Shown piece after piece: positions 6,372-58,190 of a DNA stretch of 64,000 nt. The notes beneath the pieces were generated by a model. The model saw only the letters and a program-made list of their open reading frames with translations, was not told where the DNA came from and did not search any database. Source of the DNA: a virus. Location of the stretch: the IMG/VR virus record IMGVR_UViG_3300045988_182866; one strand, written 5' to 3'. The position numbers and the translations under genes are program-made. How positions within the stretch are numbered: position 1 is the first letter of the stretch; every line of letters starts with the position of its first letter.

Positions 6372-6375
6372 CGAA

Positions 6376-12561: not shown

Positions 12562-12787
12562 TTTAAATAAAGTCCACAGCGTCTACCTATTCCGCCACAA
12601 GTGCTTGTGCGCTAGATACATTAATTATTAAGAATTAATTCTTAATACCTGGAATCGAACCAGGAATATCCATGTATAAATTATTGCTGTATGTATCTTA
12701 CATAAAACTAGACTCATTTTTTATTATATACACCAATAATATTTTAATTTGCTGTACGAGTCTATAAAATCTTTATAACTAACTAAG

Positions 12788-12880
12788 CACCAAAGGTTTG
12801 ACTCGAACAAGCAACTAACAACTAACAACTAACGAGTAACGAGTTAACAGCTTGCCCCTCTACTATTGAGGTACTTTGGT
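12788..12880 (-). tRNA. tRNA-like gene, possibly tRNA-Asn(GTT) with ~27-nt repeat-expanded variable arm
   Basis: acceptor ACCAAAG/CTTTGGT, D-arm CCTC-AATAGTA-GAGG, anticodon loop CTGTTAA, T-arm GCTTG-TTCGAGT-CAAAC (one mismatch); variable region built of GTTAGTT heptamer repeats. Confidence 0.35.
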
Positions 12881-18555: not shown

Positions 18556-19668
18556 TTAGATGTTCATTAATTTATTATACACCTTGAAACCAATAGGTGT
18601 TTTGCGATAAATCATCCACAGTAGAGTTTGATTCAAGCTAGGATAAGTTTTCAATAACTGAACTACTTCATGGGCATCTTCATAAATATTGATTTCTTTT
18701 AACCTTTTTTGACATTCTTTATAAGGAAGAACTACGAATTGTTCAAATTTTTTACAAACCTCAATCATATTAGGTTTAATATATTCTGCGATCTCATAGT
18801 CAAATTGTTTTTCTACAAACTCATAAAACTGCTTTTGAACTTGTTCAGCTTCAAAAGTTTCCGGATTGAGATAACCATGTTCATACATCGCTTCAGCTAC
18901 TTTGAGTATAGAACTTAAGGTAGATTTCATCCGATGCAAAGTACAATACCAATCTGATTTTATCTTTTTAAGAAGCTGTCCATTATTAAAATAAACAACA
19001 ACTCCTTCAGCCGAAGTCCAGGATTTAATCTTTTCATTTAAATCAATGTAAGATTTAATATCCGGATATTCATATTGCCTTGGCCGTTTAAATTTATATG
19101 TATGAGCAATCGAGTTTAATTCTTTCTGAGTGGCATAAGAGTAATCTTTATGATTAACCTTTCCAATCAGGAATAAATCAGGATTATCATACTTGAGAAC
19201 AATCTGATTCGTTGGGGTTACCCATTCAAAAATCAAAGAAAAATCTGCAGTTTCGTAAGATTTAAAATATAATTCAATCTTGTACTGTTCCAATAAAGGA
19301 TTAAGTTCGGAAGCATTTTTCTGTTGATATGCAGAAATAGTACCTCTGGTTCGAACAATAAGTTTTCCTTTATATTTTGAAACAATCAGACATGAACCAT
19401 CTAACTTTTCGGTTAGAACAAAATCTTTATCATAGTATGGTGCAACTGGTTCAAAAGCTGGCTGTTCATTAAAATTCATGAACTTTCTAAATCCCAATGA
19501 AACTGGGAATCCATCAGAAACCCGCCAAATAGAAGAACGATAAATCTTATTTAAATCAGTAAATTTGGCAGAAATCAAAGGCGTAATCAGAACACAAAGG
19601 TCTCCAGCAATTTCTACTTCTTTAAAAGAAAATTCTTCTTCGGATTCTTTAAACCACTGATACTTCAT
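18556..19668 (-). CDS. rnlA: RNA ligase 1 (T4 RnlA-like tRNA repair ligase)
   Basis: 370 aa; KxDG motif LTEKLDGS, FEWVTPTNQIVLKYD, KKIKSDWYCTLHRMKS; these blocks and length match what I recall of T4 Rnl1 (374 aa). Confidence 0.85.
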   Translation of the reverse strand: MKYQWFKESEEEFSFKEVEIAGDLCVLITPLISAKFTDLNKIYRSSIWRVSDGFPVSLGFRKFMNFNEQPAFEPVAPYYDKDFVLTEKLDGSCLIVSKYKGKLIVRTRGTISAYQQKNASELNPLLEQYKIELYFKSYETADFSLIFEWVTPTNQIVLKYDNPDLFLIGKVNHKDYSYATQKELNSIAHTYKFKRPRQYEYPDIKSYIDLNEKIKSWTSAEGVVVYFNNGQLLKKIKSDWYCTLHRMKSTLSSILKVAEAMYEHGYLNPETFEAEQVQKQFYEFVEKQFDYEIAEYIKPNMIEVCKKFEQFVVLPYKECQKRLKEINIYEDAHEVVQLLKTYPSLNQTLLWMIYRKTPIGFKVYNKLMNI

Positions 19669-22309: not shown

Positions 22310-23763
22310 AGGCTCTGTCCTACCACAGTGTTGATTTTTAAGGAATCTTTCATGCTGTAAGACTTAATGTGTTGATGTTACCATCAAGACAATGGGTGAA
22401 GCCCCACCCTCTACACCTTGGTCGGAGACCGACATCGGGTGCTTCTTTTCTATATCGATTTTAATTGGATTAAACATTGATTTGTGAGGTGAGAATGTTT
22501 TGCCGAGACCTCTACGCAGTATGTTAGCGGCACCATTGATGTCGGCGTTTAACATGCATCCAACAGAGCTTACAAACAACCCACGTTTCTTTCTCTTACC
22601 CATATATTCATCATAGTGACAAATATCCTCGTCGTCAAGGAATGAGCATTTGGAGGTGTGAGACTCATTGTGAGTTTCCACATTGATACCGGCTTCACTT
22701 GCTTTGTAAGACAACATCCAAATGAGTTGAGAATGTGGAATGCTCACAAAGTTCTGATTGTTTCGTTTACCAATGTTTACTTCCTGCTTCCATCCATCAT
22801 TATGACCGATAAAGCAGTTTCCGATTTTGTTTTCTACCATCAAATCAACCACTGAACGACTAGCCTTGTGCATATAATCTTTTGTTTTGTTATTGCGCTT
22901 TCTAGTAAGTCTCCTGAGTTTCTTTGATGTATTCATATCTCTCTCAGCCAACTTAGATACAATTTCAGCGTAAGTCTTGTTATAATATTGGTTGATGCTC
23001 TTTAATGGTCTGCCATTAACAAGGTGGGATATAGACCCCTCGTTTGAAGTTACAGCCATTAAGTTATCAATACCAATATCTATCCCTACTGCTTTGTTGT
23101 AGTCTAAGTCAACCGGAGAAATCTTTGTTTTGTAGAAGATTTGTATCTCTATACATCCTTGCTTTGGCACAAGACGAAGCTCTTGCAAGGAGGTGAGCTT
23201 CGTTTTAATTGGAAGCTTAAAGTCCTTGCGAATGTTTATCGTTCCGTCTTTCTGGATTTTCGCGTCATTATAAGAGAAGGCAACGGAAAATAACTTATCG
23301 CCATTTGCTTCTTTCTTATACCTGGGCATCCTTGGTTTCCCAGTGAATTTCTGTGGATTCTTCTTGTATGAGTTAAGAGACCTGAACCAAGTAGAGAATG
23401 ATTCGGCACACTTCTTCACAGTTTGTGCTGCTTCGTTATCCTTTAACAACGATCTAAAATCTTTGTCGTTTAACTTCCTCATTCTGGTGATTAGGTCAAA
23501 CACAGAGATAAATTTCTCTTTCCTGATTATGTCTGTGTATTCAGGAATGTTCTCGTGTTTGCCACTAAACGCTTGGCGGAGAATGTATAACGTTCTATTG
23601 TAAAGAGATGTATTCAGAGAGCATTCTTGCACAGCCCAACCATAGAAGGATGTCCCTTCTTTTATCTGGTGCGTTTCAACTCTGATTGCCTCTTCTTGCA
23701 TTCGCTGTTGTATATATTATACCATAGGTTTATCAGAAATCAACACTGTGGTAGGACAGAGCC
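22310..23763 (-). mobile_element. TnpB-only element bounded by perfect 28-bp terminal inverted repeats
   Basis: 22310-22337 is the exact reverse complement of 23736-23763 (AAATCAACACTGTGGTAGGACAGAGCCT); the TnpB ORF lies between. Confidence 0.6.
22364..23701 (-). CDS. tnpB: TnpB (IS200/IS605 OrfB, RuvC-like OMEGA nuclease)
   Basis: 445 aa; C-terminal zinc finger C..C..C..C and RuvC-III motif NADINGAANI. Confidence 0.85.
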   Translation of the reverse strand: MQEEAIRVETHQIKEGTSFYGWAVQECSLNTSLYNRTLYILRQAFSGKHENIPEYTDIIRKEKFISVFDLITRMRKLNDKDFRSLLKDNEAAQTVKKCAESFSTWFRSLNSYKKNPQKFTGKPRMPRYKKEANGDKLFSVAFSYNDAKIQKDGTINIRKDFKLPIKTKLTSLQELRLVPKQGCIEIQIFYKTKISPVDLDYNKAVGIDIGIDNLMAVTSNEGSISHLVNGRPLKSINQYYNKTYAEIVSKLAERDMNTSKKLRRLTRKRNNKTKDYMHKASRSVVDLMVENKIGNCFIGHNDGWKQEVNIGKRNNQNFVSIPHSQLIWMLSYKASEAGINVETHNESHTSKCSFLDDEDICHYDEYMGKRKKRGLFVSSVGCMLNADINGAANILRRGLGKTFSPHKSMFNPIKIDIEKKHPMSVSDQGVEGGASPIVLMVTSTH

Positions 23764-30896: not shown

Positions 30897-32069
30897 ATGA
30901 TTCATAAAGCATATAAATTCAGATTACTCCCAACAAAGGAGCAAGAGGAATTTTTATGTAAATCATTTGGTGCATCTCGATGGGTTTATAATTATTTCTT
31001 AAATTATAGAGATTCTAAATTCAAAAATGAAGGAGTAAGAGTTAATTATTTTGAGATGAAGAGAATGTTTCCTGAACTTAAAAAACAGGAAGAAACATCT
31101 TGGCTTAAAGAAATAAACTCTCAATCCCTTCAATGTGCTTTAATGAATCTTGATAGTGCTTATATTAAATTCTTTAAAGGATTATCAAAGTTTCCAAAAT
31201 TTAAGAAAAAGAATGGTAAACAGTCATTTGAAATTCCGCAACATTGGAAATTAAATGATAATACTGTTAAAATTCCTAAATTAAAAACTCCATTAAAATT
31301 TATTAAGCATCGTGAAATAAAAGGAGAAATTTGTTCTATCACTATTTCTAAATCGAAAACAAATAAGTATTTTATTTCTTTTTGTTGTGAATTAGAAAAC
31401 TATCATCAGCAAACTAAAGGTTCTGAAGTTGGTATCGATTTGGGTATAAAAGATTTATTGATATGTTCAGATGGAACGAAATATACAAATCATAAATTTT
31501 ATAAGAAAAATTTAAAGAAGTTAAAAAATCTTCAAAAACATTTAAGTCGAAAGAAGAAAGGTTCAAAGCGAAGAGAAAAAGCTCGTTTAAAAGTCGCAAA
31601 AGCTTATGAGAAGATAACCAATTCTCGTGAAGATTTATATCACAAGGTTTCTAACGATTTAATGAACAAATATTCTTTAATTTGTCTTGAATCTTTAAAT
31701 GTTAAGGGAATGATGAGAAATCATAAATTAGCATGTTCTATTCAAGATGCCGCTTGGTATAGTCTTATTTCAAAAATAGAATATAAAGCTAAATGGAAAG
31801 GTATTAATGTTGTTAAAATAGACCAGTTTTATCCGAGTAGTAAAACTTGTTCGGTATGTAATTGGAAGAAAAATGATTTAACGCTTAAAGACCGTGAATG
31901 GGTTTGCCCCAAATGCGGTACTCACCACGACAGAGACTTAAATGCAGCTAAAAACATTCTTGCTTGGGGTAAACAGTTGATTACTCTATCGGATGGAACG
32001 TCCGATTACGAGCATGGAGATGAAGTAAAACTAAAATCGTCTAAAAAGACGAGAACGTATCATCTATGA
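30897..32069 (+). CDS. tnpB: TnpB (IS200/IS605 OrfB)
   Basis: N-terminal YKFRLLPTKEQEEFL; C-terminal CSVCNWKKN..CPKCGTHHDRDLNAAKNI zinc finger plus RuvC-III. Confidence 0.85.
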   Translation: MIHKAYKFRLLPTKEQEEFLCKSFGASRWVYNYFLNYRDSKFKNEGVRVNYFEMKRMFPELKKQEETSWLKEINSQSLQCALMNLDSAYIKFFKGLSKFPKFKKKNGKQSFEIPQHWKLNDNTVKIPKLKTPLKFIKHREIKGEICSITISKSKTNKYFISFCCELENYHQQTKGSEVGIDLGIKDLLICSDGTKYTNHKFYKKNLKKLKNLQKHLSRKKKGSKRREKARLKVAKAYEKITNSREDLYHKVSNDLMNKYSLICLESLNVKGMMRNHKLACSIQDAAWYSLISKIEYKAKWKGINVVKIDQFYPSSKTCSVCNWKKNDLTLKDREWVCPKCGTHHDRDLNAAKNILAWGKQLITLSDGTSDYEHGDEVKLKSSKKTRTYHL

Positions 32070-32284: not shown

Positions 32285-33445
32285 TTAAAGAGTTACAATA
32301 AACCGGCTAATTGAGCCTGGAGCTGTAGACACCGAATATCCTAAACGTAGGACCAAAGCCAGCATGGTAGCTCGAGAGATCTTATTCTTTCGACCAACAC
32401 TGCCGCAAAGCTGGGCAATATTAGTTCCTTGAATTATAGTGGGTCCTCCCAGAAAAACTGGAGACAGAGTACCGTCTTCCCTATTAACAAAATGATTCTG
32501 AATATTTCGTTCAATAGCTTCCCGAGTCTTGGAAATGTTGGCAGGGCTGCACATTTCATCAATTATTCCCCGATCAGAAGCTTCAACATTAACCGGAGTA
32601 CGATCCTTGGAACATTCCTTAACGTCAATGCCATCAACTTCTACATCAGGAGAAGTATAAGCTTCCTTAATTTCATTAAGAACTTTATATTTACTTACAC
32701 GGCATTTTTGACATTCACAATCAGTAGGAACTGAAACAACATCTTGAGGATTAACTTCTACCGCAACTACGCGCTTTCCAAAACCCTTAGCATAATCATA
32801 AGATCCAACATGCAATCCGGCACTACACCAGTTATTTCGATTTGCATCAACATCTGCAACTACTACTTCAATGACATCGCCGGGATTATTTCGAATTTGG
32901 TAATGCCCGTTTACTTTACCTTGAAGCACTCTGGTTTCGGCATTACCATGAAGCGAATACATATCTTCTCCAACACCCTTATAGGCAATAAAGGTACCTT
33001 CGGAAGTAATAGGCAATTCCTGATAAGAAAGGAAGTCATAAAGCTCTTCTCTAGAAGTTTCGGAAGGATTAGCCATCAAGTTATCAATAAACTTAAAGTA
33101 ATGGGTAAAATCAGTACAACCAGACTTCCAAAGAGAAATAAGCTTTTTTTGAAGACATTTGGGAAGAATCTGAGTCTTATAAGAAGCAATAGTAGTAATT
33201 ACACCATTTTCATCTCGTTCAACAAATTGGAGATTATCGTAATCTTTAATTGTTTCAGAAACGGAATTAATGATATAAGAAGTGGTATTTTCCTTAAGAA
33301 GCCTGAGAAGAGTTTTTTCATCATTGGCCATTACCGCATCGACAATATCAGTATAGCGAACATCATCGGGAGTAATCTTAACTGCTCGACCATCAACAAA
33401 GAAGGTCCAGCCTGAGGCATTCATAATATATGGAATAGAATTCAT
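32285..33445 (-). CDS. hypothetical protein (GC-richer)
   Basis: 386-aa ORF; CxC..C.KC cysteine cluster. Confidence 0.45.
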   Translation of the reverse strand: MNSIPYIMNASGWTFFVDGRAVKITPDDVRYTDIVDAVMANDEKTLLRLLKENTTSYIINSVSETIKDYDNLQFVERDENGVITTIASYKTQILPKCLQKKLISLWKSGCTDFTHYFKFIDNLMANPSETSREELYDFLSYQELPITSEGTFIAYKGVGEDMYSLHGNAETRVLQGKVNGHYQIRNNPGDVIEVVVADVDANRNNWCSAGLHVGSYDYAKGFGKRVVAVEVNPQDVVSVPTDCECQKCRVSKYKVLNEIKEAYTSPDVEVDGIDVKECSKDRTPVNVEASDRGIIDEMCSPANISKTREAIERNIQNHFVNREDGTLSPVFLGGPTIIQGTNIAQLCGSVGRKNKISRATMLALVLRLGYSVSTAPGSISRFIVTL

Positions 33446-33456
33446 ATTTTGTTTAA

Positions 33457-35805
33457 TTAATATAGTTTATAGTTGAGTTTTTTGAGAATTCGCTTAAAGG
33501 TTAATTTAACTTTATCTTTTGTTTGAAATCCTGCACCATTTAAAACCGCTTGTATTTTTTCTTTTACAGAAGAAGTCATAATATAGGTTGAAATATTATC
33601 CAAACAAACTGATGACATAGTATAAAAGAAATTCAATATTTCTTTATCTGAAAGCTTTTTAATTTCAGCATCAAACTCTCTTTGAATATTATAACATTGA
33701 ATTGAAAGATCAAATATATCCATTATGAATCGGTTAAATCCTCCTCTATAAAGATTAATTTCATATCTTGTAGAGATAACCGGATAATCAGGAGTCGATG
33801 CAGAAATTTTTGGAGCTGTATATCCTGTTACAGATTTAAAATCAATATCATAAATCCTGCAGATATTAATGATTTGATCTGGAAGATAAACGAGTTTATG
33901 CTTTTTACAATATTCAATATAGGTTTCTTTCCATTTAATTTCTATAGCTGAAATGCACCCGAGAGAAACAAATTTATCGTAATGGTTTTTATAAAGCTTT
34001 GCTATTCGTTTAATGCCAAAATCTGTACAAAGATGAGACTGATAAAGCTGCGTCGGACTATTATAATTAACGAAATTTGTACAAAAGGCCAAATAAGAAT
34101 TAAGGTAGTTATCATTATTCATGCGCATTGAAGGATAAAATACTAACGTATTTTTGTATTCTTTCTCATCAATAATTTCACCGGTATAATAATCCCGGAG
34201 AACTACCGCTTCACCATCTGAAGACTTTATTCTTTTAGGCCTGACATATGTTGAATGCTTAACAATATCAGAATAATTAAACCAATCGATATTTTGCCTA
34301 AAGCACGGCTTGTCGTTAAAAGTAAAGGCCGTCCTTAAATTAAGGAAATTTGCTTTTTCTTCTTCATCTTTAACAAAACAAAAAATATGAGTTCTTCGAA
34401 GATCAAAGACTTCTGCTCGATAATCATTCCCCCTAAGGTGAACAAGATAATTATAAAGGGCATTAATTATTTCACCATAAGGAAGCTTGATAGGATCTTT
34501 ATCTTGAACGATAAAGATTATTTCACCGTCAAACTTCTTAATGGTCGGATTTGAATAAAGGCTTTTCGTTTTAAGATTAATATTAGTAATATTGCCTGAA
34601 CCTGCATAATAATTTTTTGCAACTGAGCAAACAGTATTCAAATAGCAATCCGGCCATTTAATAATTGAACTATTTCGATAAAATAAAGTACTTTTTGAGT
34701 TAGCTTTATTGATAATATCTGAACAAAGTAAATCACTGTCAATAAGTTTATCGACATAATCATTAATAGTCTTTTCATAATTTTTATTAATGATTTTAAA
34801 TTTACCCTTAATCCAATCATTTGTGAAATTGTTTATTTCAATCGATTCTCTGGTAGGAGAAATCGGAATTTCACCGCGTTTAAAAAATAAAAGAACGGTA
34901 CAAGCATTTTTAATGATATTATATTCATTAAAGATTTCATTAGGAATATCAATCTTGTAAATGTTATCCCCATCATAAGCATAATAATTACAGCTCTTAA
35001 AAAATGAAGAATAAAAAGTATTAGAAGACCGGTAATTCGGAATCAGCAAAACTGTATCTTTAATATAAAGAACTCGGGATTTGTCAAGAAATTCTTTATC
35101 TCGATACTTTGCAAATCTTGGGGTTTTTTCGTAAGGGACATAATTTTCCCATTTATCCTCCGGTACGTCTTCAATGTCTATTTTTTCCGGATAACTCCTA
35201 AGTTCAATGACAGGTTCATCACTATTGAAGCCAAAAGTAATATACGCATCCTTGATTAAATCAAGGAACTTGTAATAATCATCAGAATTATTAAGAGGAA
35301 TCTTTACCTCAATACCCGTATCATTCAAATCACAGGGTTCAGAATGAATCAAAGAAGCAATAGAATCATTACCATCAATGCTTGAAGAAAATGTATATTT
35401 TGTTCCTTCAAATCGAGAAATTACCAAATAAAGGCCTGTATATGCCGCAGGAGCCTTAGACCCGATTCCAAATCCTCCAATGGATGTATTTTCTTGATTC
35501 TTGGTAGATTCAAAATATTGAAAGAAAACTTGAAAAGTATCTTCTTTGCTAAGACCCCTGGCAAAATCACGAATAGAAAGTTCATTTTTTGTAAGATGAA
35601 TAGAAACAGGCCTTTTAATGCCATATTTTACATGTCCATCCAAAGCATTGCTTAACGTTTCAAAAAGTGTTGCCTTAAATTTGTCTGAATAGATCCTATC
35701 GCGCAAAATAGAAATTGCCATTCCTACGCGCTCGGCCGAGATAGACTGTTTGACCTGTTCGGCTATACCTCCGCAAATACTTTTATTCTCTTCAAAAACC
35801 TTCAT
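33457..35805 (-). CDS. GHKL-superfamily ATPase, HSP90/HtpG-like N-terminal domain
   Basis: N-box FETLSNALDGHVK (compare HSP90 ELISNASDALDK) and G2 box GGFGIGSKAPAAY in first ~130 aa of 782-aa protein. Confidence 0.6.
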   Translation of the reverse strand: MKVFEENKSICGGIAEQVKQSISAERVGMAISILRDRIYSDKFKATLFETLSNALDGHVKYGIKRPVSIHLTKNELSIRDFARGLSKEDTFQVFFQYFESTKNQENTSIGGFGIGSKAPAAYTGLYLVISRFEGTKYTFSSSIDGNDSIASLIHSEPCDLNDTGIEVKIPLNNSDDYYKFLDLIKDAYITFGFNSDEPVIELRSYPEKIDIEDVPEDKWENYVPYEKTPRFAKYRDKEFLDKSRVLYIKDTVLLIPNYRSSNTFYSSFFKSCNYYAYDGDNIYKIDIPNEIFNEYNIIKNACTVLLFFKRGEIPISPTRESIEINNFTNDWIKGKFKIINKNYEKTINDYVDKLIDSDLLCSDIINKANSKSTLFYRNSSIIKWPDCYLNTVCSVAKNYYAGSGNITNINLKTKSLYSNPTIKKFDGEIIFIVQDKDPIKLPYGEIINALYNYLVHLRGNDYRAEVFDLRRTHIFCFVKDEEEKANFLNLRTAFTFNDKPCFRQNIDWFNYSDIVKHSTYVRPKRIKSSDGEAVVLRDYYTGEIIDEKEYKNTLVFYPSMRMNNDNYLNSYLAFCTNFVNYNSPTQLYQSHLCTDFGIKRIAKLYKNHYDKFVSLGCISAIEIKWKETYIEYCKKHKLVYLPDQIINICRIYDIDFKSVTGYTAPKISASTPDYPVISTRYEINLYRGGFNRFIMDIFDLSIQCYNIQREFDAEIKKLSDKEILNFFYTMSSVCLDNISTYIMTSSVKEKIQAVLNGAGFQTKDKVKLTFKRILKKLNYKLY

Positions 35806-35829: not shown

Positions 35830-36735
35830 CTATAATTTTTCTCTAATTTTCTGGAGGTGTTCAGATATTTCTTTTTTAATGGTTTCTGCATTAGTTTTCC
35901 ATTGGCTGTCCCAAACTTCAATTAAAGTGATTCTGGCATCTTTACAAAGTTGCCTTTTATTTTCATGATAGCCAGGTTCTTTTTCTTCATGTATTTTATG
36001 CCAGTATTCGCCATTATATTCAAGGGCAAGTTTTAATTCAGGAAGATAAATATCCAATTCTTTTCGACCAATAAATTTTCTTGTATTTTCGAGAATTTCT
36101 CCAGGATAAATTGATTTGATAAAATCGCATAACTCCTTTTCACCCTTAGATTTCTTTTCATGAAGGGCACATTTTAAACATCCCCGCCCAGTTAAGTGAT
36201 TATACGCCATTTGAGCAAATTTACCATGGACAGGACAAATAATAATCACATTTGTTTCTGCATTAATATAAATTGTTTTCGAATAATCGAATTTATGTCC
36301 ATGCACTTTTTGAGCACGGTTAATAAATTCTTTTGTGGTTAAACGCTCCAATCCTACGCAACTTTTGCATCCATGCCCCCTTAAATGATTGATGGGATAT
36401 TGCTGAAAAGGTCCATGAACAGGGCAAATAATAGGTACTTTTGCATGATTATTTTTATAGTTTACTTTAGAATAATCATATTTGTTCCCATGAACCTCTC
36501 TTGCTTTCTTTATAAACTTCTCAGTCGTTAAAGATTTTGCATCAACTGCACATTTAAAACATCCCTGACCTCGTAAATGGGCTCCGGCTCTTTGTTGGAA
36601 AGGTCCATGAACCGGGCAAATAACAGTTATAGAACTATAAGCATTTTTATAATTTACTTCAGAATAATCAAAAAAGTCTCCATGTATTTTTCTAGCCCTG
36701 TCAATAAAAATTTCAGTGGTTATTCTGTTGGGCAT
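35830..36735 (-). CDS. putative homing endonuclease: 3x zinc-binding KYDYS repeat modules plus C-terminal DUF559/Vsr-like nuclease
   Basis: repeats F.KA..VHG.KYDYS.V.Y....K..IICP.HG.F.Q....HL.G.GC..C; C-terminal ELDIYLPELKLALEYNGEYWH. Confidence 0.65.
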   Translation of the reverse strand: MPNRITTEIFIDRARKIHGDFFDYSEVNYKNAYSSITVICPVHGPFQQRAGAHLRGQGCFKCAVDAKSLTTEKFIKKAREVHGNKYDYSKVNYKNNHAKVPIICPVHGPFQQYPINHLRGHGCKSCVGLERLTTKEFINRAQKVHGHKFDYSKTIYINAETNVIIICPVHGKFAQMAYNHLTGRGCLKCALHEKKSKGEKELCDFIKSIYPGEILENTRKFIGRKELDIYLPELKLALEYNGEYWHKIHEEKEPGYHENKRQLCKDARITLIEVWDSQWKTNAETIKKEISEHLQKIREKL

Positions 36736-36810: not shown

Positions 36811-38415
36811 TCACTTTTCAGATTGTTCATCAACCAAGAATGTTTCTGTTGTTAGAATCAAACCTGCCGATGCAGCGGCGTTTTCAATTGCGCAACGACA
36901 TACACTAAATGGATCAATAATTCCCGCTTCTAACATGTCTACTAACTTTTGCGTCTTAATATCAAACCCGATACTGCCTTTAGCTTTTGCAACCTTTTCG
37001 ATGATAACATCCGGTCGTTCAACTCCGGCATTCTCAAGAAGAGTCTTAAGAGGAATATCAAGAACCTTTCGCATTAAGTTAACACCGGCATTAAAAGATT
37101 CATCTCCTGTTTCAAACTTAATAGACTTGTTTTCTTTAATCTTAGCGAGAACAGATCCTCCTCCTGGAATAACTCCGGATCGTAAAGCCGCTTGACAGGC
37201 ACACACCGCATCGTCTACACGATCCTTAATTTCATTTAATTCAGATTCAGAATTACCTCCGATATTAAGAACACATACTCCTTGGGCAAGCTTGGCAATT
37301 CGCTTATTAAGCACATCTTCTTCCCAGGAACCAGGACTGCAATTATCTCGTTCCTCTTTAAGCAAATCAATATGTTCTTTAAGCCTTTGAGGATTTCCTC
37401 CGCCTTTTAAGAAAGTTGTATATCGTTTATCACAAACAATCTTTTCACAGGTGGCAAAATCTTCCTCTCTAATAGAATTAAAATCACGTGAAAGAAGTTC
37501 AGTAAAATATGTACCCCCTAAAGTAATTTCAAGATCTTCCATTTCTCTCTTCATGCCGTCTCCATATCCGGGACACTTAATGGCACAAATGTTAATAATG
37601 CCTTTAATCTTATTAATGACAAGAGTTTGAAGAACTTCGGATTCAATATCCGGAGCGATAATAAACAAAGGCCTTCCACGAAGTTCTTTAGTATTAAAGA
37701 CCTTTTGAAGAATAGGCATAATTTGTTGATTATTCGTCAATTTAATTCCGGATAAAAGAATTAAGGGATTTTCAAGAATACATTCTTGTTTAGTCGTATT
37801 ATTGACAAAATAAGAACTCATCCAGCCTCGAGGAACTCGTAAACCTGCAATAAACTGGGAAGAAGATTCATTACTCCTGCTGTCATTAATAGTAATGGAA
37901 CCATCCAAACCTACTTTTTCAACAGCTTCAGAAACAAGATGTGCAATTTCTTTATCCCAGTTGGTAGAAACTAAAGCAATTTGGTGAATCTGTTCTGGAG
38001 AACATTCCTGCTTAATATTTTCTTTAATATAGTTGGCAATTGTCTTTGCCGCTGAAATAACTCCGCGTTGAATTAAAATCGGATTATAACCTGTTTCAAT
38101 CAGCTTCATGCCTTCAGATGCAATAGCCCCAGTGAGGATTGCGCTGGTACTGGTCCCATCACCAGCCTGGTGCGCTGATTGCTCGGATGCTTGACGAATA
38201 ATATCTGCACCCATTTTTTCAAGTACATCAGGCGGATTTACATGACGAGCTACTGTAACGCCGTCTTTTGTAATATATGTCGCATTACCCATTCGATATA
38301 TTACATTTCTGCCGCCAGGCCCGAGCGTCGAAGAAACTGCATTAGCAAGTTTCTTTACACCATTAAGCAGTTTCTTCCTGCCTTCATTTCCCATATAAAT
38401 GTTTTGTTGAATCAT
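36811..38415 (-). CDS. groL: chaperonin GroEL
   Basis: 534 aa; LGPGGRNV, AGDGTSTSAILTGAIASEG, VVALVSTN..-type blocks. Confidence 0.85.
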   Translation of the reverse strand: MIQQNIYMGNEGRKKLLNGVKKLANAVSSTLGPGGRNVIYRMGNATYITKDGVTVARHVNPPDVLEKMGADIIRQASEQSAHQAGDGTSTSAILTGAIASEGMKLIETGYNPILIQRGVISAAKTIANYIKENIKQECSPEQIHQIALVSTNWDKEIAHLVSEAVEKVGLDGSITINDSRSNESSSQFIAGLRVPRGWMSSYFVNNTTKQECILENPLILLSGIKLTNNQQIMPILQKVFNTKELRGRPLFIIAPDIESEVLQTLVINKIKGIINICAIKCPGYGDGMKREMEDLEITLGGTYFTELLSRDFNSIREEDFATCEKIVCDKRYTTFLKGGGNPQRLKEHIDLLKEERDNCSPGSWEEDVLNKRIAKLAQGVCVLNIGGNSESELNEIKDRVDDAVCACQAALRSGVIPGGGSVLAKIKENKSIKFETGDESFNAGVNLMRKVLDIPLKTLLENAGVERPDVIIEKVAKAKGSIGFDIKTQKLVDMLEAGIIDPFSVCRCAIENAAASAGLILTTETFLVDEQSEK

Positions 38416-39503
38416 GATTTACAATTATTATAGCATGTTTCTTTGATAAACTTTTTTAATTTTTCCTTATTCTTTCGCCACTGAGTATCTAAAATTTCTA
38501 TTAATTTTATACCTTTTTTCTCACAATCTTTTTTCTTTTGAACATGATAGCCTGGATATTTTTCTTCCTTTAACTTATGATGGTAATCACCGTTGCATTC
38601 AAAGGCTAGATTTAATTCAGGAAGATAAACATCAAGTTCTTTTTTTCCAATAATATCTCTTGGGTTTTCTTGAACCTCGCCTGGATAAATTGATTTAATA
38701 TATTGACAAAGTTCTATTTCACCTTTAGATCTTTTTGATGCCGCTAAGCATTTAGGGCAACCGCTTCCGCGTAGATGCGTATTGGGCAACTGTAAAAATG
38801 GGCCATGTTTTTTACAAGTTATAATAATTTTTGTTTTTGCATTTTTATAAGCTACCAAAGAATAATCATACTTGTCTCCATGAGTAGCTCTAGCTTTTTC
38901 TATAAATTCTTCAATAGTTCTCTTATTATTTCCGGCACAAAATGGGCAGCCGGAGCCTGAAAAATGCTTATCAGGGCGTTGTTCAAAAACTCCATGTATG
39001 GGACATATAATTTTTACTTTTGTTCTTTTATTTTTATAAATTACTAAAGAATAATCATATTTGGTTCCATGAACTTCAATAAATCTTTTTCTAATCTCTT
39101 CCTCAGTTAAAAACTGATTTTTAATTGCACATTTTTTACATCCTTTTCCTATTAAATGGCTTGATGGATCTTGCTTAAGGGTACAACCACATTTATTACA
39201 TTTTATGATTACCTCGGTTGTTGAATTTATATAATTAACTAAAGAATAATCATATCGGCCTTTCCCATGAATTTCTTCAGCTTTTTCTATAAATTCTTCT
39301 GTAGTCCTGTTAAATCCTTTACATTTAGGACAACCATGGCCCATTAAATGAATGTTGGGAATTTGCTCAAAGTAGCCATGTATGGGACAAAATATTTTAA
39401 TTAATGTTTTTGTGTTAAAATATACAACTTCAGAATAACCATACTTATTGCCATGTATTTCAATAGCTTTTTTAATAAACCCTTTAGTTGTTAATCTTTT
39501 CAC
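38412..39503 (-). CDS. putative homing endonuclease: 4x KYDYS zinc modules plus DUF559 nuclease
   Basis: paralog of 35830..36735. Confidence 0.65.
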   Translation of the reverse strand: MKRLTTKGFIKKAIEIHGNKYGYSEVVYFNTKTLIKIFCPIHGYFEQIPNIHLMGHGCPKCKGFNRTTEEFIEKAEEIHGKGRYDYSLVNYINSTTEVIIKCNKCGCTLKQDPSSHLIGKGCKKCAIKNQFLTEEEIRKRFIEVHGTKYDYSLVIYKNKRTKVKIICPIHGVFEQRPDKHFSGSGCPFCAGNNKRTIEEFIEKARATHGDKYDYSLVAYKNAKTKIIITCKKHGPFLQLPNTHLRGSGCPKCLAASKRSKGEIELCQYIKSIYPGEVQENPRDIIGKKELDVYLPELNLAFECNGDYHHKLKEEKYPGYHVQKKKDCEKKGIKLIEILDTQWRKNKEKLKKFIKETCYNNCKS

Positions 39504-39662
39504 GATTTTTAATCATTATAGCACGAATTAATAAATTTCTGCCCGCAATTTGAATCTAAATCTTCGAAAGATATGGAATTACCGCAAGGAGGATGCTTAT
39601 ATTGAACGGGAAAATATCCTTTCTGGCAGCAGCAAGAAGACAGAAGAAATATTACTAATAAT

Positions 39663-40085
39663 TTAACCCCAAGTGAATAATCCATAACCCCAGTACCGGC
39701 TTATATTAGGAAGAGGATTTGGTGTTTCTTCAAGGAAAATAGTCTGGCCGGGATGCCGCTTTTCATATACTTGCTTTACAAGGAAAATAATAAGAGATAT
39801 GAAAAAGTCAATTATAAAATGAACGTTATCTGTCTGTCCCTGTAAAATATTTTCGATGAGGTCAAATTTATTTTCTTTAAGATAATCAATTAGCTCAACC
39901 GGAAGAATATCATCTTCGCCAGCGGCAAAAATATTATCATCAAAATCAAACCCTAGTTCAGATTTAATGCCATCTAAACATTGTTCAAATTCTTCTTTAG
40001 TAAGATCAGTCTTTAACCATACTATATCTCTTTCATCATGTCCATCTCCGGACAAATCACCATATTCAAAACTAAAAATATTCAT
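39663..40085 (-). CDS. acidic hypothetical protein
   Basis: 140-aa ORF. Confidence 0.4.
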   Translation of the reverse strand: MNIFSFEYGDLSGDGHDERDIVWLKTDLTKEEFEQCLDGIKSELGFDFDDNIFAAGEDDILPVELIDYLKENKFDLIENILQGQTDNVHFIIDFFISLIIFLVKQVYEKRHPGQTIFLEETPNPLPNISRYWGYGLFTWG

Positions 40086-40145
40086 ATCAATATAAATGGA
40101 AATTCCGCCTAATATTAAATTAGGCAGAATTTCTTTATTTGTTAA

Positions 40146-41195
40146 TTAATTACCAGCAGGTTTAAAATCTGCAATATTCAGAACCTTAAACAAACCATCG
40201 TTTTGATTAGCTCCTCCCATAATCAACATTGAAGGAAGTTTAATATCTTTAAAAGATTCAAAAAACTTAATTCGTGCATAATTACTTCCCATTGCTGCAT
40301 TCAATTCTCGAATTGCTTCAGCTTCAAGCTTCTTACCTTGAGCTTCTGCGGTCTTCATAGCAAGAAGAGCTTCTGCTTCATTTTTCTTTTGAGCAAGCAT
40401 GGCCAAAGACTCTTGTTCTCGGCGATACCTTGCAGCATCAGATTCAGCCTTAGCCTGAAGAAGTTTACCTTGAGCTTCTGCAGCCATCTTATTGGCAATT
40501 GCCCGGCCTTCTGCATTAGCAATCTCTTCGGAACGCTTTGCAATTTCAAGCTGGGTAGCCTGGCGTTCATATTCCTGAGTAGCCTCAACCTTCTTAGTAA
40601 TACCAAGAGTCACCGATTCAGGTGGAATAGTGGAACCAATAGTTACACTTTCAACAATAAATGGAGTGCCATTAAGTTGCTTCTTAAGGTTAGTTTCTAC
40701 CATCTTGGTGATTTCCGGAATCCTAGAAGGAGCTTCTAGACCTTTAAACTTAGCAATAGCAGATCGTACTTCGGTACGGAAAGGTTGCTGAATAAATGAA
40801 GCGTAAGCATCTTGAGCAATAGCTTCCGGGCATCGAGCTGTTTCAGAGATAGCTCCATAATTTTCAACAAATTCCTTTACTTTTTCACTGTCGATACGAT
40901 AAACAAGATAAGATTCAGCCTTCATCTTAAGCTGGTCCGAACTACGAACATCATCAAAAGTTTCAGTCTGAGTATAAGGAGTTACGCAAATCTTAATAGA
41001 ATTCTGCCTCCATACCATACCTGTACTACCGGGTCCTTTAATTACTTGCTTAAATTCCTTCGAACCAAATATAGGTTCGGAATAAACATAACCTGCGTAA
41101 CCGCCATCGATTTTTTCATTTGAAAAATTAACGGCAAAAATAATAGCCGCAACAACGGCAATAATTAGAAATAGAGCTGCAAAAAAATCCTTCAT
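40146..41195 (-). CDS. SPFH/band-7 (prohibitin/HflK-like) membrane protein
   Basis: N-terminal TM helix, SPFH-like core, A/E/Q-rich coiled-coil tail. Confidence 0.7.
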   Translation of the reverse strand: MKDFFAALFLIIAVVAAIIFAVNFSNEKIDGGYAGYVYSEPIFGSKEFKQVIKGPGSTGMVWRQNSIKICVTPYTQTETFDDVRSSDQLKMKAESYLVYRIDSEKVKEFVENYGAISETARCPEAIAQDAYASFIQQPFRTEVRSAIAKFKGLEAPSRIPEITKMVETNLKKQLNGTPFIVESVTIGSTIPPESVTLGITKKVEATQEYERQATQLEIAKRSEEIANAEGRAIANKMAAEAQGKLLQAKAESDAARYRREQESLAMLAQKKNEAEALLAMKTAEAQGKKLEAEAIRELNAAMGSNYARIKFFESFKDIKLPSMLIMGGANQNDGLFKVLNIADFKPAGN

Positions 41196-41237
41196 GTTTT
41201 ATTTTCTTTTTATTTTTTAATGTGACTAATATTAATG

Positions 41238-41687
41238 TTATACAGAAATATTATTAGTAACTGGAATTCCAACCACTGGAATCTTGGTCTTTAACTTAAT
41301 CTTATAATCCCCCACAACTAAATCCTTTGCCTTTATCTTAGAAATAGCATTGGAAACTGTAGTGATATTATATTTTTTACCTCGTTGAGACTTCACAACA
41401 TCGATAAGATTTCGTTCAACTGCCAACTGAACTTCTGAATCACTAAGTTCCTCAGGAGCTTGAATAATTACATAAGAACGATCTTGAAATTGTTCGACTT
41501 CTGTATCATCCAAAACAATCGGCATTACAAGAAATCGATTTTTAACTCGATTTTTCTTTTCGGTCAATTCTTTCTCTTGCTCAACAAGAGCCTTTGCTTC
41601 CTCCAGAATAATTTTTTGTTTATCCTGAGGTACTTTAGAAGCCGCAAGAATCATCTCAAGGTCTTCAATATCAATTTTTAGTGCCAT
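41238..41687 (-). CDS. hypothetical protein
   Basis: 149-aa ORF. Confidence 0.45.
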   Translation of the reverse strand: MALKIDIEDLEMILAASKVPQDKQKIILEEAKALVEQEKELTEKKNRVKNRFLVMPIVLDDTEVEQFQDRSYVIIQAPEELSDSEVQLAVERNLIDVVKSQRGKKYNITTVSNAISKIKAKDLVVGDYKIKLKTKIPVVGIPVTNNISV

Positions 41688-41690
41688 AGT

Positions 41691-42257
41691 TTATATTTGA
41701 TATGTGATTAAATCCGTTGTCAATTTATTAATTGTTTCAATAAATGCTACCGGGATAGCTTCTTCAATTTTTAGTAAAAGTAATTTTAAGTTCTCATTAA
41801 CTTTAGGGCCAAATAAAATATATTGAGTATCATTGTTTAAATCGACAGAATAAGCTTTAAAATTTGCTTGATTAAAACTTATAACTGTAAATCTATCAAC
41901 AATTAAATTGTTTTTTAAAAAAGTCTCTCTGACAAAATTCTCAAGATCTCTGGAATAAATTCCTCTATGATGATCTACTTCTACTTCAATTAAAAAAGAT
42001 TGATTTATATCAATAAAGTGGTCAAATGAAGCTATTCCTAAAGTATTCCACCAAGTAAAATACCTTTCATTAAGGCCATTCTTTACTTTAATGATTTTGC
42101 TTTTATTGGCAAATGGAGAGTAAATTGTAAAAGCATGTTTAAAATCTTCAATAGTCCTGTAAGCAGGATCTTCAAAGAATTCTTCTTCAAATAAATCGAC
42201 TTGGTAAGTTTTACCATTACCAAGTCGATCAATAAGTTTGAAAACTGCTTGTTTCAT
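41691..42257 (-). CDS. hypothetical protein
   Basis: 188-aa ORF. Confidence 0.45.
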   Translation of the reverse strand: MKQAVFKLIDRLGNGKTYQVDLFEEEFFEDPAYRTIEDFKHAFTIYSPFANKSKIIKVKNGLNERYFTWWNTLGIASFDHFIDINQSFLIEVEVDHHRGIYSRDLENFVRETFLKNNLIVDRFTVISFNQANFKAYSVDLNNDTQYILFGPKVNENLKLLLLKIEEAIPVAFIETINKLTTDLITYQI

Positions 42258-42931
42258 TAACTCTCAGCAACACGAGCCTTCAAACGGGCAAGAGCATCTT
42301 CTTTAGATACAGATTCAATAAATTCATTCATTTCATCTTTAGTATCATTAAGAGTTCCGCTTACTTCAATTGAAGCATCGGCCTTAGAATCTTTCTTTTC
42401 AAGAATCTTATCTACATCTGCCAGCATCCCGTTAAAATCATTTTTGCCTGAAATATTCGCAATATCCTTCAAAGCAGCAAGATCTTCCTTCATAGCAGCA
42501 GATGCAGCCTTCAACTTAATCTGTTCAATTCGAGAATCATAAGAATTAAGAACAACTCTTTGATTACTAATCAACTTATCATAAGTTGCAGTTGCTTCTT
42601 CAAGAGCCTTTTCAGCCATATCAAGCTGTGCCTTAGTATTTTCATATTGAAGAGAAAATTCGGCGGCAAGACTTTCCTTGCCATTCTTAAGAGCAAGAAT
42701 GGCTCGTTCATTGAGAACTTGAACCTTTTGCTTAAGACTCTTTACATTTTTAGTCATGTTGTTTACTGTAGTCTTTACAGCAACCAATCGTTCATAAATT
42801 TCTTGCTCGGCCTTGCTCTTTTCATCTTCGAGAGACGCAATAAGAGCATCAACATTCTTACTTTCAAGTGAATTTACACCAAGATTAAGCCAGCCAAACA
42901 AAACACGTCCCAAACGTCCAATAATTCTCAT
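42257..42931 (-). CDS. PspA/IM30/Vipp1 family protein
   Basis: N-terminus MRIIGRLGRV.. and ERAILALKNGKESLAAEF parallel PspA MGIFSRF.. and ALTNGEENLAREAL; coiled-coil throughout. Confidence 0.7.
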   Translation of the reverse strand: MRIIGRLGRVLFGWLNLGVNSLESKNVDALIASLEDEKSKAEQEIYERLVAVKTTVNNMTKNVKSLKQKVQVLNERAILALKNGKESLAAEFSLQYENTKAQLDMAEKALEEATATYDKLISNQRVVLNSYDSRIEQIKLKAASAAMKEDLAALKDIANISGKNDFNGMLADVDKILEKKDSKADASIEVSGTLNDTKDEMNEFIESVSKEDALARLKARVAES

Positions 42932-42937
42932 ATATTT

Positions 42938-43207
42938 TTAAATTTTAATTTTTTGATTTTCGTCCAAATATTTGTATTCGTTAAGTATTACAAATTGATT
43001 TTTAATACTTTCTTTATCCCAATTAACTCCAATTTCTTTGAATTTATTAACGCTTAATTTAATTTCAGTCTGCCCGTTTCTTATTAACCAAAACTTGGCT
43101 TTTTCATCAATTGTTATTTCTCCATCAGAAGGAATTAAAGTATGGTAATAATTTTCAAGAAATGCTTTTTGATTGCGCGTCCAAAGCCATTTAGGATAAT
43201 CAAGCAT
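42938..43207 (-). CDS. hypothetical protein
   Basis: 89-aa ORF. Confidence 0.4.
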   Translation of the reverse strand: MLDYPKWLWTRNQKAFLENYYHTLIPSDGEITIDEKAKFWLIRNGQTEIKLSVNKFKEIGVNWDKESIKNQFVILNEYKYLDENQKIKI

Positions 43208-43245: not shown

Positions 43246-43710
43246 TTAATTTCCTGCGTATTCAACTAAAAGAACAGAAATATCATGCTTTGTTCGAAAA
43301 TTATACAAAAGATTTTCAAATTCTTTTGGTTTTACTCGTCCTATACCGCATCCCAAAAAAGGCATTACAACAGTATTAAGATGATGAGTGTTCATAACTT
43401 CAAACAAATCGCAAAGAGACAAAGAAATATCTCCCAAATTTGCTATTGAACCAGGATAAAACATGGTTGGAACATTGGCAATCATTTTCCAATTATCTTC
43501 ATCGGACAAATAAAAATAATGGCCTTTACCAATATTAACCATTTTAGAATTACAAGAGTTCTGATAACTCCAGTACATTTCAGGAAATTTATCGGCAAAA
43601 GCTTTTGCAACTCCTGCTCCCATTACTCCGATACAATTGACGGCATTGCAAATTACATCCGCCTTTGTATCAAAGATATTTCCTTTTGTTTTAATAACTT
43701 TAAGAGACAT
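43246..43710 (-). CDS. Macro domain protein (ADP-ribose binding/hydrolase)
   Basis: GNIFDTKADVICNAVNCIGVMGAGVAKAF macrodomain signature. Confidence 0.75.
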   Translation of the reverse strand: MSLKVIKTKGNIFDTKADVICNAVNCIGVMGAGVAKAFADKFPEMYWSYQNSCNSKMVNIGKGHYFYLSDEDNWKMIANVPTMFYPGSIANLGDISLSLCDLFEVMNTHHLNTVVMPFLGCGIGRVKPKEFENLLYNFRTKHDISVLLVEYAGN

Positions 43711-56660: not shown

Positions 56661-58190
56661 ATGAACCTTTCTTTATTGACAGTATTATGTCATGGCAAAA
56701 ATAATAGCCAACTTAAAGAATTATTAAAAAATAATAAAATATTAAATTTTATTAATACTTTTATTAAAGATAAACCTTATTATGAAACACCCTTTAGATT
56801 TTTAAAATTGTTGAGTAAAAATGCAACATTACCTGCCTGTATTATATGTGGAAATATTATTTCTTATAGTATTTGGAATAGACGTAATAATGCTAAATTT
56901 TGTTCTAAAACTTGCAAATATTCTAAAGAAGGTAAAGAAAATACTAGAAAAAATATTGAAAAAACATTAATTGAAAAATATAAGGTTAAAAATATTTTAC
57001 AACATAAAAAGTTTAAAGAAAAACAAGAATTAACTTGTTTAGCAAAATACGGAACTAAATTTTATTCAAAAACTTCAGAATGTAAAGAAAAAGTTAAGAA
57101 GACGTCATTAGAAAAATTTGGTACAAATAATGTGATGTTCAATAAAAAGGTTTTAAAAAATATAAAAAATAATAATTTATTAAAATTTGGGGTTGAATGG
57201 CCTTTATCAGATAAAACTATTCATAAAAAAACTATGAATAGTCTTGTTAAAAAACATTTAGAAAAGCTTAAAAAGTTTAATTTAACTTTGTTAGATGAAT
57301 ATCAATCCACAAAAGAATACTATAATTTTAAATGTGCTACATGTGGTAATACATTTAAAGATCATTTAAAAAATGGTAGAATTCCTATATGCAAACATTG
57401 CTTTCCTTCTAATACTTCTATTGGGGAAAAAGAATTATCAAACTTTATTAAACAATTTTCTTCTAATATTAGCTTAAATGATAGAACATTAATAAATCCT
57501 TTAGAATTAGATATTGTTATTCCAGAAAAACATTTAGCAATAGAATTTAATGGGCTATATTGGCATTCTGAAGAACATGGTAAAAATGAAAATTATCATA
57601 TTAATAAATCATTATTATGTAAATCTAAAAACTTTAATTTAATTCATATATTTGAAGATGAATGGCTTTTTCAAAAAAATATAATAAAAGGTATTATAAA
57701 AGATTATTTTAATAGCAAAAAAATAAAAACAAATTTTATTACATTTAAAAAAATCGATAATAAATTAGCTAAAAAATTTAATGAAAAATATAATATTCTT
57801 GGACATATTACTACAAAAAATAATTTTGGACTTTTTTATAAAAATAGATTAATACATGTATTATCTGTTGGAAAACCAAGATTTAATAAAATTTACAAAT
57901 ATGAAATTTATCGATTATCCTCAACATTTAATTTTAAAATTGAAAATTATTTTAAAGTTTTAATTGATAATTTACCTTTATCAATTAAAGAATCATTAAT
58001 ATTTTATGAAAATAAACGTTTTCCTATTATTAATAAAACATTATTAGATAATTTGATATTTTTATCAAATTCTAAGCCAAGCTATTTTTTTGTCAAAAAT
58101 AAAAATAGATATTCAAAATATAATAAAATAAATAGATTTGATTATAAAATTTGGGATTGCGGATCAACACTTTATCAGGTTAAATATTAA
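56661..58190 (+). CDS. putative homing endonuclease: K/N-rich zinc-ribbon N-terminus plus C-terminal DUF559/Vsr-like nuclease
   Basis: CIICGN..C..C and CATCGN..CKHC; C-terminal LELDIVIPEKHLAIEFNGLYWH. Confidence 0.6.
   Translation: MNLSLLTVLCHGKNNSQLKELLKNNKILNFINTFIKDKPYYETPFRFLKLLSKNATLPACIICGNIISYSIWNRRNNAKFCSKTCKYSKEGKENTRKNIEKTLIEKYKVKNILQHKKFKEKQELTCLAKYGTKFYSKTSECKEKVKKTSLEKFGTNNVMFNKKVLKNIKNNNLLKFGVEWPLSDKTIHKKTMNSLVKKHLEKLKKFNLTLLDEYQSTKEYYNFKCATCGNTFKDHLKNGRIPICKHCFPSNTSIGEKELSNFIKQFSSNISLNDRTLINPLELDIVIPEKHLAIEFNGLYWHSEEHGKNENYHINKSLLCKSKNFNLIHIFEDEWLFQKNIIKGIIKDYFNSKKIKTNFITFKKIDNKLAKKFNEKYNILGHITTKNNFGLFYKNRLIHVLSVGKPRFNKIYKYEIYRLSSTFNFKIENYFKVLIDNLPLSIKESLIFYENKRFPIINKTLLDNLIFLSNSKPSYFFVKNKNRYSKYNKINRFDYKIWDCGSTLYQVKY

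Follow-up and report, generated by a model that had tools for sequence, protein, structure and literature searches.

PspA and Vipp1 (IM30) are membrane-repair proteins of the ESCRT-III type that polymerise on the stressed inner membrane and limit proton leak. PspA, which measures 222 amino acids in Escherichia coli and owes its name to its induction by a phage protein, acts like the rest of its family at the cytoplasmic face of the inner membrane. A lytic phage needs an energised and intact inner membrane until its holin fires. Here we analyse a 64,000-nucleotide stretch of viral DNA (IMG/VR record IMGVR_UViG_3300045988_182866, in the following called the window) in which a gene for a PspA-like protein lies near a gene for an SPFH/Band-7 protein. 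Association of PspA with Band-7 proteins is a known theme in cells (PMC11237479, PMC8581546). The pspA-ydjGHI operon of Bacillus subtilis (also pspA-samGHI) encodes PspA, the two membrane proteins YdjG (ZnR domain and transmembrane part) and YdjH (TPM domain and transmembrane part) and the SPFH protein YdjI, which is soluble and cytoplasmic and is needed to bring PspA to the membrane (PMC8581546). SPFH proteins build membrane cages or oligomeric microdomains (PMC7619361, PMC8581546), and SPFH open reading frames have been recorded in T4-like phages since 2006 (PMC1524935).

The locus resembles the B. subtilis operon in that PspA comes first and SPFH last, with two genes between them and all genes co-directional. 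It differs in three respects: the middle proteins are soluble, lineage-restricted orphans, the SPFH protein is self-anchored and predicted to be periplasmic whereas YdjI is soluble and cytoplasmic, and the pairing is dispensable in the phage lineage. Judged from these features, the phage block does not appear to copy the B. subtilis PspA-YdjGHI complex. Instead, we favour, with a probability of roughly 55%, the interpretation that the window carries two separable genes for inner-membrane maintenance, probably co-transcribed, whose products act from opposite faces of the membrane. The PspA-like protein would be cytoplasmic, would bind the stressed inner membrane via an N-terminal amphipathic helix and would polymerise through its helical hairpin, and the polymer would seal proton leaks and sustain the proton-motive force until programmed lysis. 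For the SPFH protein we envisage an uncleaved signal anchor that holds it in the inner membrane, and SPFH and coiled-coil parts that extend into the periplasm; there it could assemble into an oligomeric cage or microdomain and, during infection, take the place of the host copy or add to it. Both would serve the same broad aim, an intact inner membrane of the infected cell, neither requiring the other. Proposed roles in envelope-stress protection, in lysis timing and against abortive infection are conjectural. The features on which this interpretation is based are:

42257..42931, minus strand: PspA/IM30-like protein (ESCRT-III superfamily), 224 amino acids (Pfam, hhalign, AlphaFold2 and Foldseek)
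42878..42931, minus strand: predicted amphipathic helix alpha-0, codons 1-18 of the PspA-like gene, MRIIGRLGRVLFGWLNLG (hydrophobic moment)
40146..41195, minus strand: SPFH/Band-7 protein, 349 amino acids, with signal anchor, SPFH domain, A/E-rich coiled coil and C-terminal tail
41124..41186, minus strand: hydrophobic anchor, codons 4-24 of the SPFH gene (Kyte-Doolittle 19-residue maximum 3.17)
40296..40595, minus strand: A/E/Q/K-rich helical region, codons 201-300 of the SPFH gene (76% A/E/Q/K/R/L)

The PspA-like protein

Sequence comparison and the predicted fold together identify the 224-residue protein as a genuine, strongly diverged member of the PspA/IM30 family. The Pfam profile PspA_IM30 (PF04012) aligns at positions 5-217 of 220 with E=1.4e-7, at a score of 31.8 bits against a gathering cut-off of 33.9, and precomputed PF04012.18 matches are on record for the identical protein and for strain variants. 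A phmmer search of 1.84 billion representative proteins returned only 31 related clusters at E<=1e-3. Among these are a phage clade (P0123 with 42%, P0124 with 36% and P0127-P0129 with 26-27% identity) and cellular relatives of 220-260 amino acids with about 25% identity. PF04012 is matched by 23 of the 25 sequences in the joint alignment (A1), whose profile matches solved Vipp1/PspA structures over their full length (6zvr, E=1.2e-15). Direct comparison of the six phage-clade sequences (A2) with 16 cellular relatives (A7) by hhalign gave a probability of 99.8% and E=6.8e-28 over 226 columns.

The AlphaFold2 model has a predicted local distance difference test score (pLDDT) of 80 and consists of helices at residues 3-17, 27-82, 86-158 and 166-223, of which 27-82 and 86-158 exceed 90. 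In this model an alpha-1/alpha-2+3 hairpin is followed by alpha-4 and alpha-5, as in the ESCRT-III-type fold. The 13 best Foldseek matches of the predicted model in the Protein Data Bank (PDB) are all Vipp1 or PspA (best E=3e-4, template modelling score about 0.5), and chemoreceptors, SMC, Snf7 and CdvB follow at lower ranks. The hydrophobic moment of the protein peaks at residues 1-18 (muH 0.63), which are helical in the model and probably correspond to the membrane-binding alpha-0 helix of PspA/Vipp1. With its 224 residues the protein is close to E. coli PspA in length and lacks the C-terminal extension of Vipp1. It thus shares with PspA/Vipp1 the N-terminal amphipathic helix, the long helical hairpin, the further helices and the full-length profile similarity, and differs from the cellular members in its low identity to them and in coming from a lytic-type phage.

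Several observations weigh against this assignment. The Pfam score lies below the gathering cut-off, the phage-only profile A2 reached no PspA structure in the PDB and gave weak coiled-coil matches, and a single-sequence phmmer search of the PDB returned MlaD and other coiled coils instead of PspA. Coiled-coil composition may inflate such similarity scores. One could argue from these points that the protein is merely a generic coiled coil, for example an assembly factor or regulator, that resembles PspA by composition. We consider this very unlikely: the similarity is full-length and collinear throughout, R6, E23 and A89 are nearly invariant in A1, the amphipathic helix occupies the very N-terminus, Vipp1 and PspA rank above all other coiled coils in the fold search, and the gene lies in a non-structural region. 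The assignment to PspA was kept despite the sub-cut-off Pfam score because hhalign, the A1 profile, AlphaFold2/Foldseek and alpha-0 agree.

Phage-borne PspA appears to be rare and uncharacterised, whereas phage SPFH proteins are already known as annotations. Neither the PspA-like protein (tblastn) nor the cellular PspA P0131 found a match in 50,697 phage records. With E. coli PspA as query, the same records yielded only two human-faecal contigs labelled "UNVERIFIED Bacteriophage sp.", and the one of the two that was inspected (not MT839532.1) is bacterial chromosome with the tryptophanyl-tRNA synthetase TrpRS and PcrA. PHROGs holds no general PspA family, and no paper on a phage-encoded PspA homologue was found in the literature searched. 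Automated annotation (JGI) already labels the protein "phage shock protein A". No donor of the gene could be identified; an A4-based scan of viral and metagenome data for further PspA-like loci returned the same species only, and a genome scan using PspA gave no match.

The few viral look-alikes in BFVD include an uncharacterised gut Myoviridae protein (E=1e-3). The same database names an entry of Acinetobacter phage ME3 "PspA/IM30 family protein". This is probably ME3_238, for which family membership is unconfirmed here. ME3_238 (L066 33400-36144; KU935715 183400-186144) is a 229-residue coiled coil with a hydrophobic or amphipathic N-terminus, encoded between two small membrane proteins and beside an AAA ATPase. 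It was rejected as a verified relative as it has neither a PF04012 match nor an hhalign signal to the phage clade. Still, ME3, a cultured jumbo phage, may have in it an ESCRT-III-like module that is only very remotely related.

The SPFH protein and its relatives

A preliminary description of the locus, made from the sequence alone, had placed four genes here, and their positions and order proved exact; all four open reading frames lie on the minus strand. It had further called the first a PspA/Vipp1-like protein and the last an N-terminally anchored SPFH protein with an A/E/Q-rich tail. Both calls hold, the former by hhalign, AlphaFold2/Foldseek and the alpha-0 helix, the latter by the Band_7 profile and by the anchor and the residue composition listed above. 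The profile searches it had proposed as a check gave a split result: Band_7 (PF01145) matches residues 28-216 of the SPFH protein with 64.8 bits, far above the cut-off of 23.6 (E=1.4e-17), whereas PspA_IM30 fell narrowly short.

The family assignment of the SPFH protein is also supported by phrog_200 (E=3e-28). In the PDB, the single sequence found no match, and the SPFH-family profile aligns weakly at positions 139-237 with residues 141-241 of prohibitin-2 (E=0.0027). The protein has one hydrophobic segment, at about residues 4-24 of the N-terminus, and its residues 201-300 presumably form an oligomerisation coiled coil. Related SPFH proteins of Akkermansiaceae start with a Lys-rich flank and about 20 hydrophobic residues followed by a conserved Cys in N-C-S-N-E. 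The SPFH protein of the related phage locus L006 has a good lipobox, F-V-A-C, and that of L013, if read from an internal Met, begins with a typical lipoprotein signal peptide (MKKIIAGVV...FLSC). In the window protein the lipobox Cys of its relatives is replaced by Phe (AVNFSNE), which suggests an uncleaved signal anchor. Together with the positive-inside rule, such an anchor predicts a periplasmic SPFH domain as in HflK/C, on the side of the inner membrane opposite to PspA. That this topology follows from simple sequence rules counts against the proposed arrangement.

The predicted architecture resembles that of E. coli HflK/HflC in having a single N-in anchor and a periplasmic SPFH domain with coiled coil. 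It differs in that one phage gene stands against a heterodimeric pair, and the NCBIfam hflK profile scores 13 bits against a cut-off of 159. With previously annotated phage proteins (phrog_200 'lipoprotein', 'HflC/prohibitin' of Staphylococcus Sep1-like phages, and those of 44RR, Aeh1 and RB43) it shares the family, the N-terminal anchor or lipoprotein architecture and the origin from large myovirus genomes. Sequence identity to relatives in cultured phages (Staphylococcus Sep1-like, Bacillus and Aeromonas phages) is only about 24-27%, and the nearest relatives are found in Akkermansiaceae instead. We know of no SPFH-bearing phage among these with a PspA gene beside its SPFH gene.

Two conserved SPFH peptides, searched against prokaryotic genomes (one for each species), found 38 loci (L015-L052), all but one of them (37/38) in metagenome-assembled Akkermansia, Akkermansiaceae or Verrucomicrobiales genomes. 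These chromosomal proteins, probably lipoproteins, are 62-65% identical to the phage SPFH over about 335 residues. The Akkermansiaceae loci have a G+C content of 51-62% and lie among ordinary genes of the chromosome, for example those for alanyl-tRNA synthetase and RecN. Neighbour-joining places the phage SPFH proteins (window and L006) beside the Akkermansiaceae clade. The identity and the tree position indicate that the SPFH gene was exchanged between the phage lineage and Akkermansiaceae. Transfer from host to phage is the probable direction since SPFH is a conserved chromosomal gene in Akkermansiaceae, and the phage probably infects members of this family.

Some points speak against these conclusions: the tree is small and leaves the direction of transfer unproven, the host assignment derives from one shared gene, the G+C content of the phage (32%) is 20-30 points away from that of the Akkermansiaceae loci, and one NCBI record bins the phage with a metagenome-assembled genome of Gastranaerophilales. 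The latter binning probably reflects shared low G+C. A literature search for an Akkermansia jumbo phage yielded nothing usable. The SPFH similarity is the first clue to the host of an abundant uncultured phage.

The gene block and the pairing of PspA with SPFH

The PspA-like and SPFH genes belong to a co-directional block of five genes on the minus strand, namely orf89, PspA-like, orf188, orf149 and SPFH. The spacers are, in this order, 6 nt, a 1-nt overlap, 3 nt and 42 nt, followed by a hairpin with a 15-bp stem, and the block genes are probably co-transcribed. Besides the genes listed above, block and downstream region comprise:

42938..43207, minus strand: orf89, soluble, 89 amino acids, open reading frame 6 nt upstream of the PspA-like start
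41691..42257, minus strand: orf188, soluble orphan, 188 amino acids, start overlapping the PspA stop
41238..41687, minus strand: orf149, soluble orphan, 149 amino acids, 3 nt after orf188
40266..41218: segment deleted in natural strain L054 (blastn, tblastn), 953 nt, SPFH codons 1-309 and 23 nt upstream
40099..40133, minus strand: hairpin with 15-bp stem, 13 nt past the SPFH stop (scan for terminator-like sites)
39663..40085, minus strand: orf140, acidic, 140 amino acids, immediately past the hairpin, with a single hydrophobic segment (residues 85-108)
39509..39685, minus strand: orf58, small predicted lipoprotein with signal peptide and L-S-S-C lipobox, overlapping the last 23 nt of orf140

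At TAATG, with GAGAG upstream, the PspA stop runs into the start of orf188; this overlap makes translational coupling of the two genes likely. Searches of Pfam, PHROG, NCBIfam and PADLOC gave no match for orf89, orf188 or orf149, and orf188 and orf149 have no transmembrane segment. The preliminary description had spoken of two unknown genes between PspA and SPFH, which agrees with these results. Homologues of orf188 are confined to this phage group (12 clusters, 77-99% identity), orf149 is confined to the species complex of the window, and the AlphaFold2 model of orf188 (pLDDT 48) is unusable. orf89 is the only neighbour kept with PspA in three lineages, namely the window, L006 (35% identity) and L003 (29% identity); a homologue search returned the same species only. 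In contrast to the canonical Psp and Lia systems, no PspB/PspC/PspF, LiaI or YdjG/YdjH partner is detectable nearby, and orf89, orf188, orf149 and orf140 are without Pfam, NCBIfam or PHROG matches.

The scan for terminator-like sites found 10 sites where 2.6 were expected, and the hairpin at 40099-40133 has the longest stem of all. Its probable role is to end the transcription unit or to stabilise RNA. Downstream of it, orf140 is probably a membrane protein; together with orf58 it makes up a conserved pair, kept in all strain variants, whose products are predicted envelope proteins. As a canonical spanin pair they were rejected, orf140 having no N-terminal transmembrane domain.

Related phage loci differ in how PspA and SPFH are combined (identities to the window proteins):

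L006/L005: PspA 27%, SPFH 65-73%, GroEL 52%; macro, orf100, PspA-like, SPFH, the last two directly adjacent
L003: PspA 41%; thioredoxin, orf88, PspA-like, orf103, GroEL ... rIIA, rIIB; no SPFH
L013: 196.5-kb IMG/VR contig, SPFH 47%; no PspA-like gene within 6 kb of SPFH
L004: more distant phage; PspA-like, then three predicted membrane proteins
L007, L009: more distant phages; PspA-like in unrelated contexts

orf188 and orf149 are missing from L006. In L004 (3060-5049) the gene for P0124 is followed by those for the three predicted membrane proteins, two of which are paralogues with C-terminal transmembrane anchors; by analogy, this arrangement recalls cellular PspA with membrane partners. As a side observation, three adjacent structural-looking genes of L009 (8087-10500) contain in-frame TAG codons, which the PspA-like gene of the same locus (P0129) does not, and late genes of this phage may thus use TAG stop-codon recoding.

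Within the species complex of the window, 10 of 11 loci keep orf89, PspA, orf188, orf149, SPFH, orf140 and orf58, and homing-endonuclease and IS605-type insertions lie outside the block from orf89 to SPFH. One strain, L053, has about 300 nt extra between orf149 and SPFH. In another, L054 (a 202,937-bp contig), a clean 953-nt deletion removes most of SPFH and leaves PspA, orf188 and orf149 intact (junction CACATT/TTTTTGAATC). As this deletion shows, the phage can do without SPFH in some settings at least, a further point against the proposed function. Ratios of nonsynonymous to synonymous substitutions (dN/dS; Nei-Gojobori, window against two strains) are 0.04-0.14 for the PspA-like gene, 0.07 for SPFH, 0.07 for orf149, 0.04-0.07 for orf89 and 0.26-0.29 for orf188. 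All block genes are under purifying selection. Compared with L053, orf188 is 77% and PspA 86% identical, whereas SPFH, GroEL, macro and orf89 are 91-96% identical. Between strains (L053, L055), PspA-like and especially orf188 thus diverge faster than their neighbours, at dN/dS below 0.3.

The preliminary description had regarded PspA and SPFH as one membrane module. The tight co-directional block with its hairpin and the recurrence of the pairing in L006, where the two genes are adjacent, agree with this view, but L003, L013 and L054 show that the pairing is not obligate. In its strictest form, a module would be a direct complex and one obligate machine as in B. subtilis, with SPFH, perhaps through orf188 and orf149 as adaptors, recruiting the PspA-like protein. 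The gene order is indeed that of pspA-ydjG-ydjH-ydjI (PMC8581546), associations of PspA with Band-7 proteins have originated repeatedly in bacteria (PMC11237479), the PspA stop overlaps the orf188 start, and PspA-like and SPFH abut in L006. Nevertheless, we regard such a complex as unlikely. orf188 and orf149 contain no transmembrane segment, ZnR or TPM domain and are absent from L006; PspA is retained where SPFH is lost or absent (L003, L054), and SPFH occurs without PspA (L013). The PspA of L006 has 27% identity to the window protein as against 65% for SPFH, which gives no sign of co-evolution. Moreover, a direct contact is improbable because the self-anchored SPFH protein is predicted to be periplasmic and the PspA family acts at the cytoplasmic face.

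At the other extreme, SPFH could be independent of PspA, acting as an HflK/C-like modulator of FtsH or as a lipoprotein-type superinfection-exclusion factor, and its adjacency to PspA would reflect a mosaic, hypervariable region. Phage SPFH proteins are common without PspA (phrog_200, 63 phage records, the T4-like phages 44RR, Aeh1 and RB43), the predicted periplasmic topology resembles HflK/C, SPFH shows presence/absence polymorphism, and the region is a hotspot for homing-endonuclease and IS insertions. However, the HflK profile scores far below its cut-off, the single gene has no HflK/HflC pair, adjacency to PspA recurs in a lineage so distant that its PspA is only 27% identical, and the block from orf89 to SPFH is unsplit by insertion in 10 of 11 strain variants. 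We therefore think this explanation doubtful and prefer that of two separable genes with a common aim.

The phage and the setting of the block

Pfam and other profile searches identify the window as phage DNA with large terminase, rIIA/rIIB, GroEL, DNA ligase and NAMPT. The terminase (61083-63020) belongs to the T4 superfamily and is about 33% identical to those of Escherichia, Salmonella and Shigella myoviruses. A megablast search with the module found no DNA-level match to a cultured phage in the 50,697 phage records. The source phage is uncultured and measures about 200 kb; in the window its G+C content is about 32%. It is very common in metagenomes of the human gut, where more than 1000 contigs encode a protein identical to the PspA-like one. 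ARAGORN made eight tRNA predictions in the window, of which at least one is probably false: the 88-nt tRNA-Asp call at 43453-43540 lies inside the macro-domain open reading frame and is probably a false positive, and the tRNA-Asn call at 12787-12880 is unusually long with 94 nt. Two sets of accessory genes stand out around the block:

43246-43710, 16822-17667, 4971-7281, 7787-8800, 18556-19668 and 32285-35805: counter-defence-type genes (family matches)
35830-36735, 38412-39503 and 56661-58190; 22364-23701 and 30897-32069: homing endonuclease and IS605-type genes

Genes of the counter-defence type are dense in the window and comprise a macro domain that resembles that of the DarG antitoxin (PADLOC, 1e-30), a NADAR domain, NAMPT and Nudix for NAD salvage, rIIA/rIIB and RNA ligases, of which two adjoin the tRNA cluster. 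The rIIA/rIIB homologues lie 4-8 kb from the PspA-like block in the same gene string, a synteny that is kept in L003. Homing endonucleases of the DUF723/treble-clef type flank GroEL, and IS605 OrfB/TnpB-like genes occur in the window as well. The endonuclease at 38412-39503 is missing from L001, L002, L058 and L061, and L054 and L055 have a TnpB-like gene between thioredoxin and macro.

The T4 late-promoter motif TATAAATA occurs twice in the 64 kb (30451 and 53885) compared with 14.7 expected occurrences, and not near the block. So marked a depletion suggests a functional motif in this phage and a window that is, for the most part, not transcribed late. The scarcity is weakly consistent with early or middle expression of the block, and from this setting we infer that PspA-like and SPFH lie in an early, non-structural, counter-defence-rich region. 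T4 rIIA/rIIB offer a functional analogy only: they are early, inner-membrane-associated proteins that guard the energised membrane against exclusion systems and are unrelated to PspA-like and SPFH in sequence or fold.

This neighbourhood raises the possibility of a dedicated counter-defence role, in which the PspA-like protein neutralises membrane-disrupting abortive-infection effectors (RexAB-like channels, transmembrane effectors of CBASS or retrons, gasdermin-type pores) or is a decoy for those components of defence that make use of host PspA, as in the cyclase-PspA conjugate of Bacillus CBASS. Besides rIIA/rIIB, the DarG-like macro domain, NADAR, NAMPT with Nudix and the RNA ligases, the faster divergence of PspA-like and orf188 compared with their neighbours would fit such a role, and in B. 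subtilis a CBASS cyclase is held on PspA (PMC11153139). On the other hand, dN/dS values well below 1 give no whole-gene sign of an arms race, and PADLOC yields just the weak coiled-coil match to LmuB, so that we regard a dedicated role as conceivable, if improbable.

A related idea, about which we are equally hesitant, is that the phage PspA polymer serves as an anti-defence device, helped by a host-derived periplasmic SPFH cage on the opposite side of the membrane. The PspA-like protein might then patch the membrane when abortive-infection effectors form pores or a holin fires too early, or mimic host PspA and thereby silence PspA-tethered immune enzymes such as CBASS cyclases. If this is true, a virus would for the first time be seen to use the bacterial branch of ESCRT-III.

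The SPFH gene shows cleanly how a virus can retain, through purifying selection, a membrane-scaffold gene of host type, and L054, which has lost SPFH naturally, provides a ready-made comparison. In conclusion, an abundant gut phage with its own PspA is a tractable natural test of what PspA-type membrane repair adds to infection, be it maintenance of the proton-motive force, lysis timing or resistance to membrane-acting defence.

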